Positions 28,523 to 49,533 of a DNA stretch of 64,000 nt are shown in pieces. Origin of the DNA: Capsulimonadales bacterium (GTDB taxonomy: Bacteria; Armatimonadota; Armatimonadia; Armatimonadales; Armatimonadaceae); the NCBI GenBank assembly GCA_033762295.1, contig JANRLW010000006.1:66516-130515 (forward strand), read 5' to 3'. The notes under the pieces were generated by a model. It did not search any database and was not told the origin of the DNA. It saw nothing but the letters and a program-made list of their open reading frames with translations. A program made the position numbers and the translations under genes. Within the stretch, counting starts at the first letter, position 1. The number at the start of each line of letters is the position of its first letter.

Positions 28523-28622
28523 AATATAACCGTTTTCTTTTTGTTTGTCAACCTTTTGTTTGCCGCTGCCTAAAAACTTTTGTTTTTCGGGAAGTTGCGT
28601 GTATAATCAAAACAACTATTTG
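28523..28622. promoter_or_regulatory. divergent lexA / LysM promoters with putative LexA boxes
   Basis: Minus strand TTGACA(28551-28546)-17-TATATT(28528-28523); plus strand TATAAT 28602-28607; boxes at 28549-28562, 28573-28586 and 28609-28622. Confidence 0.8.
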
Positions 28623-28687
28623 CCCGCAAATTCGGGGGGACGATTGCCCCGACCGGGAACCCGTACAGGCCGGAGGATCCGTCGATC

Positions 28688-29314
28688 ATGAGCATGACCC
28701 GACCGCTGACCGACAAACAGCAGGAAATCGTCGAAATCATCCGCAAGGCGCTGTTGCGGGATGGCATTGCCCCGACCGTCCGCGAGATCGGTCGTCTGAC
28801 CGGCTTGAAGTCCTCCTGCTCGGTGCAGAAGCATCTGAATCAACTGGAAGCGAACGGCTATATCAAACGGTCGCCGTACAAGTACCGGTCGATCGAGCTG
28901 CTGATGGAAGGGTCGCCGGTCTCCCGTCGCCGCACCGTCTCCATTCCGCTGGTCGGACGGGTCGCCGCCGGTACGCCCATTACGGCCATCGAAAACATTG
29001 AGGAGCATTATCCCCTGCCGGAGGCGATGATTCCGCGTGATGCCGACTGCTTTATGCTTCGGGTCAAGGGCGATTCCATGATCAATGCCGGCATTTTCGA
29101 CGGTGACCTGGTCGTCGTCCGCAAACAGACCACGGCTCGGAACGGCGAAATCGTCGTCGCACGGATCGGCGATGAAGCCACCGTCAAGACGTTCTACACG
29201 GCCGGGGACAACGGAATCCGCCTTCAACCGGAAAACCCCCATCTTCGGCCGATCATTACCCGGGAAGCGCAGATCGAAGGACGGGTGATCCTGACGATGC
29301 GACAGTACCCCTGA
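28688..29314 (+). CDS. lexA: SOS repressor LexA
   Basis: PTVREIG wHTH, VAAG cleavage site, GDSM (Ser), ATVK (Lys). Confidence 0.97.
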   Translation: MSMTRPLTDKQQEIVEIIRKALLRDGIAPTVREIGRLTGLKSSCSVQKHLNQLEANGYIKRSPYKYRSIELLMEGSPVSRRRTVSIPLVGRVAAGTPITAIENIEEHYPLPEAMIPRDADCFMLRVKGDSMINAGIFDGDLVVVRKQTTARNGEIVVARIGDEATVKTFYTAGDNGIRLQPENPHLRPIITREAQIEGRVILTMRQYP

Positions 29315-29333
29315 AAGGGAGCGTCCCCGTTGC

Positions 29334-29365
29334 AAAAGGCGGTTCCTCCGGGGACCGCCTTTTTT
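29334..29365 (+). terminator. intrinsic terminator, possibly bidirectional
   Basis: AAAA-GGCGGTTCC-TCCG-GGGACCGCC-TTTTTT. Confidence 0.85.
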
Positions 29366-29483
29366 GGTCGACCGTTCCCGCTCATGCGAAAAACGGCGAA
29401 CTCCGATATAACAGGGGAGGCGTTCCCGAACCGGCGTTTTCGATCTCCCGTTCCGTCTTATCCCGCTTATCCCGAGGTAACCG

Positions 29484-47272: not shown

Positions 47273-48352
47273 CCATGGGAACCGGTCGTGGTGGCGGAAG
47301 GGCGGATCGTTCGGGATGCCTGTCCCCTCGCCCTTGCTCAGGGGGTGCGGGTCGGTGTTTCCGTGCCGAGGGCGCGTCGCCTCTGCCCGCTCGTGCGGGT
47401 GGTCCCGCTCGAATCCCTCAATCCGCAGGCGTTGACGGTGAGCTTTCTCGACCTGCTCAGCGATCTGGCGCCGATTGTCGAGCCGGTCGGACCGGACGCC
47501 GCGTATGTCGAACTGCTCCCCGGCGATTCCGCAGGACGGTTGCGAACCGTGCTGTGCGCCTGGGCGCGTGACCGTTTCGGCTCCGACCCGCTCCTGGGTT
47601 TCGGCCGTTCCAAACTGGCCGCCCGCGCCGCTGCCGAGTGCGGCCTGCCCCCCTCGCGTCTGGCTGAGGCGGACGTTCGCTGGCTCTGGCCGGAGGACGA
47701 AAAGCTCGTCGCCCGTCTGCAGCGGCTCGGACTGCCCACCTTCGGCAGTGTCGCCGTCCTGCCCGAATCGACGCTGGTCCGGGAGTTCGGCAAAGTCGGT
47801 CGCCTGCTGCATCGCCGCGCGCACGGCATCGACCTCGACCGGGTGCGTCCGCTCTATCCTCCACCCCGCGCCGATGTCCGACTGAGCCGGCAGGACTCCC
47901 CGATCGACAGTCTGCCCCGGCTTCAGGCCGCCCTGGATCGGGTTGCCGCCCGCGCCGCCGGGCAGCTCGCCGGGATGAACCGGCACGGTCGCCGTCTCGT
48001 TCTGCGACTGTTCACCGAAAAGGGCGAGGTGCGCCGGGAACGTCTCCTCCCGTTGCCGATCCGCGAGGAAACCGCCGTCCGTCAGGCGGTCCGTTCACTT
48101 CTTTCGCAGATGCGCCTCACCGCGCCCGTGATCGGCATCCGTCTGATCGTCGACGAGACCGAACTGCCCGCCGCGCAGACTCTGACCCTGTTTCCGGAAA
48201 GGACCCACGAACAGGAGATCGTGATGAAGACCCTGCGTCATGTCCTGCAGGCGAAGTTCGGCGCGGAGGCCCTGCGCCGCCTCTCCGAGATTCCGCTGTC
48301 CCGGCGCGACGAGCGACGTACCCTGATCCGTGAGGCACTGCCCTTCCGATGA
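47123..48352 (+). CDS. imuB: inactive Y-family polymerase, ImuB-like
   Basis: RIVYCRLP, PVVV, ALAQGVRVG, ARRLCP, VEPVGPDAAY (catalytic set degenerate), clamp-like QTLTLF; upstream of dnaE2. Confidence 0.8.
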   Translation: MQCKQKFENASRKRIVYCRLPCLLAAAAHKPENKSLPVAGMDAARSNECLPWEPVVVAEGRIVRDACPLALAQGVRVGVSVPRARRLCPLVRVVPLESLNPQALTVSFLDLLSDLAPIVEPVGPDAAYVELLPGDSAGRLRTVLCAWARDRFGSDPLLGFGRSKLAARAAAECGLPPSRLAEADVRWLWPEDEKLVARLQRLGLPTFGSVAVLPESTLVREFGKVGRLLHRRAHGIDLDRVRPLYPPPRADVRLSRQDSPIDSLPRLQAALDRVAARAAGQLAGMNRHGRRLVLRLFTEKGEVRRERLLPLPIREETAVRQAVRSLLSQMRLTAPVIGIRLIVDETELPAAQTLTLFPERTHEQEIVMKTLRHVLQAKFGAEALRRLSEIPLSRRDERRTLIREALPFR

Positions 48353-48621
48353 GCCGTCGCGTCTGCGAACCGGTAACGGTCGACTGCTTCCCGAATGGCG
48401 AACCGTACCGTGTTCGCTTCGCCGGAGCGGGAGCATACTGCACTGTCCTCGCGATCCGGGAACACTGGCGCGAATGGCTCGGTGCGCTCGACGGCGAACC
48501 GGAACGCGATATCTGGCAGGTGGAACTGCCCCAGGGGGTCTGCGAACTCCACTGCCTCCGCGACCCGCTCGCCCCGCCACCCATTCCCGAATACTGGCTC
48601 CTCGACCGCTGGGAGGACTAA
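48349..48621 (+). CDS. DUF6504 / ImuB-C-like small protein
   Basis: HWREW...EPERDIWQVEL...WLLDRWED; ATGA overlap with imuB. Confidence 0.78.
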   Translation: MSRRVCEPVTVDCFPNGEPYRVRFAGAGAYCTVLAIREHWREWLGALDGEPERDIWQVELPQGVCELHCLRDPLAPPPIPEYWLLDRWED

Positions 48622-48831
48622 ACGAACAGTTTAGGGAGAGAAGCGGAATATAGCGATCGGCTTCGGCGGCATGGAAAGAATAAAAGGAAAGGACACGTTG
48701 CGTCAGATTCAACCGTAGCAGTTCCCGACGCACCTCGAAGTCAGCAATCGACGGGACCAGGATTCGAATTCCCTGTTTTTGGAAGAGGATGGAGATACTG
48801 TATAATCCTATTGAGGTTTTCTGAGGTAACT

Positions 48832-49389
48832 ATGGCGGAAATTCTGACAATCGATTTGAAAAACAATACTCCGCAGGGCGAGGGAATCGAATTTATCGAG
48901 GCGCAGATGTTTGCAGATCGACCGACTCCTCTCGCTGTGGTTCACTATACGAGTCATGGTAAATATCCGGAATACGGCTTGCGGCTTGACCTGCAAAAGC
49001 GAGCGTTTCTGGATCAGCCGGCAAATCCAAAAGAGGCTGGCTTTGTTCGGGACTCCGCATTGCCGGTTGCCGAGTATATTGCTACGGCTCTCGACCGTCG
49101 CGATTACGGGATTTTATCAACCACGAATAGTGCGGAAAATGCGACCACATTATCGGCGAGCGATGTGCAGGATAACGAGAGGATCATTGCGTTTCTCGAA
49201 GGGCTGACTCCTTCCGACTTCAACCGCGTTCTTTTGCGTTTGCCGGGTGGTTTTCCCCATGTGCCGGATGGAAAGCCCCATTTTGAAAGGGTCGCGGCGT
49301 TGATTCGATGGGTGGACTCTTCTGCCGGACCGGGTATCCCGCGTTTGACCGAACTGCTGACCATGCTTTTTCCAAAGGTCGCGTTGTGA
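48832..49389 (+). CDS. hypothetical protein with C-terminal EAD/death-like helical domain
   Basis: Own TATAAT (48801) and RBS GAGGT; AT-richer; LEGLTPSDFNRVLLRL...RVAALIRWVDSSAGPGI. Confidence 0.65.
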   Translation: MAEILTIDLKNNTPQGEGIEFIEAQMFADRPTPLAVVHYTSHGKYPEYGLRLDLQKRAFLDQPANPKEAGFVRDSALPVAEYIATALDRRDYGILSTTNSAENATTLSASDVQDNERIIAFLEGLTPSDFNRVLLRLPGGFPHVPDGKPHFERVAALIRWVDSSAGPGIPRLTELLTMLFPKVAL

Positions 49390-49493
49390 CGAATCAGTGA
49401 ACGTGGTCATGGTCATGCCGGTGCGGTTCCAACATGCAGTAATGTCCGTTTTTGCTATGGAAGTCAATGACACCTTTTCCTGCGACAATACTA

Positions 49494-49533
49494 AAAACTT
49501 TTGTTTGCCTTGAATTCATGGATGGCATACAAT
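49494..49533 (+). promoter_or_regulatory. dnaE2 promoter with putative LexA box
   Basis: AAAAC-TTTT-GTTTG (49494-49507) overlapping TTGCCT-17-TACAAT. Confidence 0.85.

Follow-up and report, generated by a model that had tools for sequence, protein, structure and literature searches.

The window analysed here is a 64,000-nucleotide stretch of contig JANRLW010000006.1 (positions 66,516 to 130,515) from the Capsulimonadales bacterium assembly GCA_033762295.1; it carries lexA, encoding the predicted repressor of the DNA-damage (SOS) response, together with a divergent yneA-like gene, uvrA, imuB and dnaE2. We propose that the palindrome (G)CAAAC-N4-GTTTG(C), in which N4 is any four bases, is the operator of the window LexA, a one-base variant of CGAAC-N4-GTTCG that is probably preferred without exclusion of the G form; judged from sequence, this reading has a probability of roughly 0.87. 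An initial annotation had proposed a shift of this LexA toward AAAC-N4-GTTT. The eight boxes on which it relied, starting at 28549, 28573, 28609, 47077, 47131, 47217, 47259 and 49494, are all present letter for letter as 14-mers. The shift itself stands as a preference: the A form is favoured and conserved without having displaced the G form everywhere, for uvrA retains a GAAC-N4-GTTC box that is itself conserved.

Enrichment and placement of the CAAAC-type box

The genome (GC content 62%, completeness 94%) groups with Armatimonadaceae, and its closest labelled lexA loci are those of Armatimonadaceae (80%) and Armatimonas (77%). Relatives were taken from family f1, read as Armatimonadaceae (hereafter the family), and from f2, read as Capsulimonadaceae (the sister family), both assignments being made via sequence-identical loci. 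The motif was built by unseeded expectation-maximisation from upstream regions of family relatives only (24 of lexA, 17 of recN), with the present genome excluded. The lexA and recN sets each yielded the same motif and the combined sets yielded GCAAACAAanntTTgc, so that the motif from relatives alone reads GCAAAC-N4-(G)TTTGC. A symmetrised matrix was used to score the upstream regions of 4266 genes predicted in this genome by a simple gene caller; it placed mutL at rank 1, the cinA-thpR-recA operon at 3, imuB at 5, Erf at 8, dnaA at 9, lexA at 15, yneA at 16, dnaE2 at 17 and recN at 36. The lexA and recN ranks overlap with the training genes, and the remaining ranks are independent of training. 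The enrichment before recA and repair genes that the initial annotation had named as a check was thus found at the recA operon, recN and mutL.

Within the window, MAAAC-N4-GTTTK occurs seven times against 0.09 expected, and none of 100 shuffles reaches seven; six of these matches are sites of the initial annotation, and the remaining one lies at 2477. The classical core GAAC-N4-GTTC gives five matches, with 1.96 expected in shuffles. Across the intergenic DNA of the whole genome, the A form occurs 17 times versus 4.45 in shuffled sequence (20 shuffles, maximum 9), whereas the G form is not enriched (5 versus 4.95). The signal is specific to the four-base spacer, nine other spacers giving 3-8 intergenic A-form matches, and a site with A in both halves (A/A) is found in only 38 of 4235 upstream regions. 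A mutation bias toward A is an unlikely source of these sites, since the genome has 62% GC.

The predicted operators sit over the -35 or directly behind the -10 of promoters that were called as sigma-70-type consensus matches, and these positions are fit for blocking RNA polymerase. The proposal that the last TTG of the box begins a -35 with a 17-bp spacer was borne out at three promoters: that of the LysM (yneA-like) gene on the minus strand (28551-28523, TTGACA-17-TATATT), that of imuB (47088-47116, TTGATT-17-TACAAT) and that of dnaE2 (49505-49533, TTGCCT-17-TACAAT). Such geometry invites the reading that the box is a promoter element for RNA polymerase, either an extended -35 or an A/T-rich upstream element, with no repressor site at all; the box does end in the -35 TTG at yneA, imuB, dnaE2 and mutL, and its spacers are A/T-rich. 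We regard this as very improbable. The left half of the box is present at only 7 of 156 TTG-type promoters and missing from the other 149, so the equal frequency at unrelated promoters that the initial annotation had named as refuting was not seen, and four of those seven promoters are yneA, imuB, dnaE2 and mutL. Three copies lie inside imuB, and the box stands behind the -10 at cinA-recA, at lexA and at the imuB promoters of relatives. The recA operon promoter (cinA-thpR-recA) is on another contig, with its box at G000:C109:1078 (G000 denotes this genome in contig coordinates, and other G numbers denote relatives) and with cinA split between C109 and C96; there, the box GCAAACAGATTTTTGC comes after the TATAAT, and hence the box is no by-product of a -35.

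Conservation, helix residue and the retained G form

The same sites recur among family relatives. With at most one mismatch allowed, the recN site is kept in 12 of 17 relatives, although in none of 12 sister-family genomes, and for the recA operon 8 of 10 have a site where cinA or thpR begins the operon. Eight close dnaE2 orthologs have a readable imuB start, where the box is a perfect CAAAC-N4-GTTTG in six, hybrid in one and degenerate in one; two further orthologs, whose imuB start is missing, were left out of this count. No box was found at nine replicative-type dnaE loci. A/A pairs make up 15 of 19 family sites at lexA, 12 of 13 at recN, 8 of 9 at imuB and 6 of 7 at cinA. When only halves free of the -35 are counted, A outnumbers G by 20:4 at lexA, 18:1 at recN, 14:1 at imuB and 13:1 at cinA. 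Beyond the family, AAAC-N4-GTTT is the commonest spaced palindrome at 62 further lexA loci across the phylum (16/62). The recA upstream regions of 30 further phylum genomes (1.5 kb each) were mostly uninformative, recA being likely often operon-internal.

The recognition helix SSCSVQKHL given in the initial annotation was confirmed in the window LexA. Its Cys44, Gln47 and Lys48 align with Asn41, Glu44 and Glu45 of Escherichia coli LexA, which are DNA contacts (PMC3091678, PMC11442139). By this helix, the LexAs of the phylum fall into three clades, Cys, Ser and SLRGV. The residue was compared with the letter that stands in the free half of the corresponding box, the one covering the lexA -35. 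Ser-type outgroup loci have G in all 53 callable cases (58 examined) and Ser-type Armatimonadota have seven G and one A (35 examined), while a first sample of Ala-type Bacillota gave 14 A and one G (17 examined). Several Ala-helix Bacillota lineages carry CAAAC or AAAAC boxes at lexA, and in 12 low-GC Clostridia genomes also at recA. CGAAC persists at recA in two Ala-type genomes, and G is likewise retained by an Acidimicrobiia-like Ala clade. Within the sister family, lexA promoters carry CAAAC when the LexA is of Cys type and CGAAC when it is of Ser type.

These data bear on a second explanation, in which LexA has the unchanged Gram-positive specificity and the A-rich sites are tolerated weaker boxes, kept since GTTTG supplies the -35 TTG. 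Hybrid GAAC-N4-GTTT boxes are normal in Clostridioides difficile and Staphylococcus aureus, uvrA keeps a box with G in both halves, and the GTTTG half overlaps the -35 in 53 Ser-type outgroup (Bacillota) lexA promoters as well. From this last observation it follows that the overlap is ancestral and not specific to the A-type box. Unchanged specificity nevertheless appears improbable, considering that the halves free of the -35 are mostly A, that A/A pairs occur in 3 of 191 Ser-type outgroup promoters versus 46 of 73 Cys-type promoters, and that the G form shows no intergenic enrichment.

Several observations weigh against a CAAAC-preferring LexA and temper the proposal. A single A half is tolerated even by the LexA of Bacillota, and Cys-type LexAs are not uniform: among 34 callable loci (55 examined), 25 have A, six G and three another letter, and in family f7, also of Cys type, mixed G boxes persist. 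A fresh metagenome sample of Ala-type LexAs gave 50 A and 30 G among the 80 callable loci that were left of 120 after removal of 25 duplicates, eight loci with short upstream sequence and seven without a callable site. The letter change has only 2-7 independent origins and the sign test is not significant. Of 16 family relatives, no more than five keep the mutL site. No box was found before uvrB, uvrC, ruvC, ssb, recF, recR or polA (genes located by characteristic motifs; ranks 892-3642 of 4266), which speaks against a broad regulon. Finally, 12 of 15 uvrA promoters in the family have a site, mostly at the same position, with seven G/G, four A/G and two A/A pairs. A one-residue code, in which Ala or Cys would give A and Ser would give G, was accordingly rejected as a rule on the Ala split of 50 to 30, although Ser goes with G in 53 of 53 loci; an independent-pair test returned no pair in the opposite direction and two starred pairs, a result short of significance. 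The helix residue looks permissive rather than decisive: Ser goes with G, and loss of Ser allows A.

The G-type box of uvrA had not been listed in the initial annotation. The uvrA promoter on the plus strand (34176-34225) reads TTGTCA-17-TACAAT and is followed, just behind the -10, by TGAAC-AGAC-GTTCG (34212-34225); the gene itself, with UvrA domains, spans 34338-37361 on the same strand. The simplest reading of the two box types is that one LexA binds both the A and the G form and would prefer A. The uvrA G box, if bound more weakly, would open earlier, in line with the timing logic of weaker and stronger boxes described for E. coli (PMC9578287, PMC5999292).

LexA, its paralogs and the boxed loci

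The lexA gene (28688-29314, plus strand) encodes a protein of 208 amino acids that matches PF01726 and PF00717 and scores 219 bits against TIGR00498 (cut-off 111), with both the winged-helix DNA-binding and the S24 peptidase domains present; it is the sole S24 peptidase match in the genome. Alignment to E. coli LexA shows the cleavage site Ala94-Gly95 and the catalytic pair Ser130/Lys167 to be retained. Its -10, TATAAT (28602-28607), is followed at the predicted transcription start by a weak putative operator, AAAAC-AACT-ATTTG (28609-28622), and a further putative operator, AAAAC-TTTT-GTTTT (28573-28586), covers the -35 region. On the minus strand, divergent from lexA, lies a gene for a YneA-like protein with a hydrophobic stretch and a LysM domain (28008-28412, PF01476), a predicted SOS division inhibitor; its promoter (28523-28551) is overlapped at the -35 by the putative operator CAACC-TTTT-GTTTG (28549-28562), of which relatives have a similar site. 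Among 24 family relatives, 12 have the yneA-like gene adjoining lexA, as do all five sister-family Cys-type loci. The gene identities given in the initial annotation hold. The imuB product has IMS and IMS_C domains; the LysM inhibitor matches YneA PRK14125, and dnaE2 has an error-prone polymerase model as its best match, both of these matches falling below the cut-off (for YneA, 42 bits and E 5e-11 against a 60-bit cut-off).

By analogy with the known pathway, a LexA dimer would block RNA polymerase at the boxed promoters, and RecA on single-stranded DNA would trigger LexA cleavage between Ala94 and Gly95 via Ser130/Lys167; cleavage would release division arrest, recombination and ImuB-DnaE2 mutagenesis. 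More tentatively, the change from Ser to Cys at the contact equivalent to Asn41 may have relaxed the demand for G, upon which most boxes could have moved to A.

A different regulator could bind the box instead, and one candidate exists: a second LexA-like protein, the other PF01726 match, at G000:C6:48975-49595, which is kept in 10 of 18 family relatives. It has the helix SLRGVTVHL and a degenerate peptidase domain from which the cleavage site and the two catalytic residues are missing; it is likely a non-cleavable regulator. Four relatives (G006, G009, G016 and G007) have no PF01726 match besides the Cys-type LexA, yet boxes are kept at imuB, recN, cinA or uvrA, and families that have only the SLRGV clade show a different motif, GTAGAC. 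It is therefore highly unlikely that this paralog or another regulator, rather than the window LexA, is what the boxes serve.

At the imuB-dnaE2 locus, the putative operator AAAAC-TTTT-GTTTG (47077-47090) is fused to the imuB promoter (47077-47116, plus strand). The ImuB-like Y-family gene (47123-48352, plus strand) is probably leaderless, its ATG lying 6 nucleotides past the -10, and its product has GPDA where the catalytic motif would stand. The start is probably ATG 47123, as the N-terminus aligns with eight relatives, and three of the four imuB boxes, at 47131, 47217 and 47259 (47131-47272, two of them perfect), would thus lie in the coding start, within the predicted first 50 codons. Next on the plus strand comes a gene of 90 codons (48349-48621), kept in relatives, whose product gives no Pfam match and resembles DUF6504 (Atlas feature score 0.91, predicted-structure TM 0.76). 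In relatives, dnaE2 stands directly behind this small gene; in the present genome, an insert of 50% GC (48622-49493, plus strand) separates dnaE2 from imuB and holds an open reading frame of 185 amino acids that matches no Pfam family. Within 48622-49540, this orphan frame has a promoter-like site of its own. The dnaE2 promoter (49494-49533, plus strand) is fused to the putative operator AAAAC-TTTT-GTTTG, with box, spacing and -10 identical to those of imuB. The dnaE2 (ImuC) gene, encoding an error-prone paralog of the polymerase III alpha subunit, follows at 49541-52690 on the plus strand with its ATG 7 nucleotides past the -10; a second, replicative-type dnaE is located at G000:C76. The starts of imuB (47123), dnaE2 (49541) and mutL (G000:C32:12762) all lie 6-7 nucleotides past the -10, and all three genes are probably leaderless.

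Capsulimonadaceae genomes have two or three LexAs each. Cys-type lexA sits next to yneA, and at four of five loci its CAAAC boxes are perfect; Ser-type lexA has tandem CGAAC halves. A G-left box is carried by recA at 10 of 14 loci, and the A form by imuB at three of four. In genus g14 (L323, L324), a second recA, with a hybrid CGAAC-N4-GTTTG box, and a gene of an unknown family adjoin yneA and the Cys-type lexA. The Ser/Cys paralog pattern fits lexA duplication as a route to motif change (PMC8565304) and may reflect it.

In families f8, f11, f15, f27, f35 and f39, whose sampled LexA belongs to the SLRGV clade, a GTAGAC half-site directly follows the lexA -35, and sites resembling GTAKAC-N4-GTMTAC occur before recA; this motif is a candidate second undescribed SOS box of the phylum. 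A perfect TAGAC-N4-GTCTA palindrome was tried for the clade and dropped as weak (8 of 31 lexA loci at two mismatches). Searches with the window LexA at E 1e-25 returned no LexA match in any of the 23 genomes searched of families f5, f10 and f17.

Further boxed genes in this genome are those for an Erf annealing protein (G000:C103:38248), a PolX N-terminal helix-hairpin-helix protein (C75:81840) and an 80-amino-acid product (C75:3512, box entry C75:3793), together with the dnaA/DUF6989 divergent region (C14:62612); weak matches stand at dnaA, gyrB, dnaX and hrcA. A strong box also heads a compact Mu-like head module (G000:C30:47839-53800) comprising protease, virion protein, gpT capsid, terminase and portal genes. 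Its capsid has single-copy orthologs of 50-55% identity in 4 of 5 relatives tested, the module being split over two loci in three. The head genes of G003, G008 and G010 likewise have a box ahead of them, there of G type, and in G008 the same box precedes the terminase-portal half. No tape-measure match was found in the five genomes examined for the module, which is a candidate damage-inducible domesticated capsid or gene-transfer-agent-like element.

A wider scenario, to which we give somewhat less than even odds, is a stepwise operator change in Armatimonadales. Loss of the helix Ser would have relaxed base 2 of the box. The response in Capsulimonadaceae would be shared by two LexAs, one of Ser type (CGAAC at its own gene and recA) and one of Cys type (CAAAC at its own gene, yneA and imuB-dnaE2); in Armatimonadaceae, the Cys copy alone would have taken the regulon, and the uvrA G box would be either a leftover or a weak site under tuning. 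Relaxation through Ala would have occurred separately in several Bacillota, and the regulon would include the conserved phage-head module.

Comparison with known SOS systems

The box by itself would be a modest step; weight is added by its reach across the phylum, by the split between paralogs and by the box at the phage-head module. The initial annotation knew of no described SOS box for this lineage, and the literature searched agrees: it has none for Armatimonadota and no CAAAC-N4-GTTTG consensus, with subscription journals, RegPrecise, CollecTF and most supplements beyond its scope, and the one supplement of PMC8565304 consulted contained no Armatimonadota names. For a phylum without either in that literature, the present data offer a candidate SOS box together with a candidate regulon, as well as a testable case of LexA operator change that would involve one base and one contact residue, with old- and new-box paralogs coexisting in single genomes. 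With standard Gram-positive matrices, SOS genes would be missed both here and in Ala-type Clostridia, and the box points to unexpected targets, namely the Erf protein and the conserved phage-head module.

The closest overall likeness is to CGAAC-N4-GTTCG, the Cheo/DinR box known from Bacillus subtilis and S. aureus (PMC9578287, PMC11442139, PMC2248561), with which the putative operator shares the 14-bp palindrome and the AAC-N4-GTT core. The two systems also have in common a lexA divergent from yneA with a box over the lexA -35, and a regulon of lexA, the recA operon, yneA, uvrA and a mutagenic polymerase. In contrast to the consensus G, base 2 of both halves is here mostly A, with G surviving at uvrA; helix 3 has Cys, Gln and Lys in place of the Ser, His and Gly of most outgroup LexAs compared; and no box was found at uvrB, ruvC and ssb. 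In print, the box that comes nearest is GAAC-N4-GTTT of C. difficile (PMC4234289), which has the same spacer and one A/T-changed half, and the lexA boxes of S. aureus and Mycobacterium tuberculosis are likewise hybrids; C. difficile, however, keeps G in one half, whereas here both halves have A in a genome of 62% GC. The imuA-imuB-dnaE2 cassette (PMC9578287) resembles the window locus in that imuB and dnaE2 carry LexA boxes, predicted ones in the present case; it differs in that the window has no imuA before imuB, a DUF6504-like gene follows imuB, and the insert gives dnaE2 a boxed promoter of its own. The SOS boxes of Balneolaeota and Bacteroidetes (PMC7739468, PMC8565304) likewise represent phylum-level LexA motifs with lexA duplication proposed as the route, but they bear no relation to the Cheo box and were confirmed by gel shift, whereas the change described here is a predicted one-base step.

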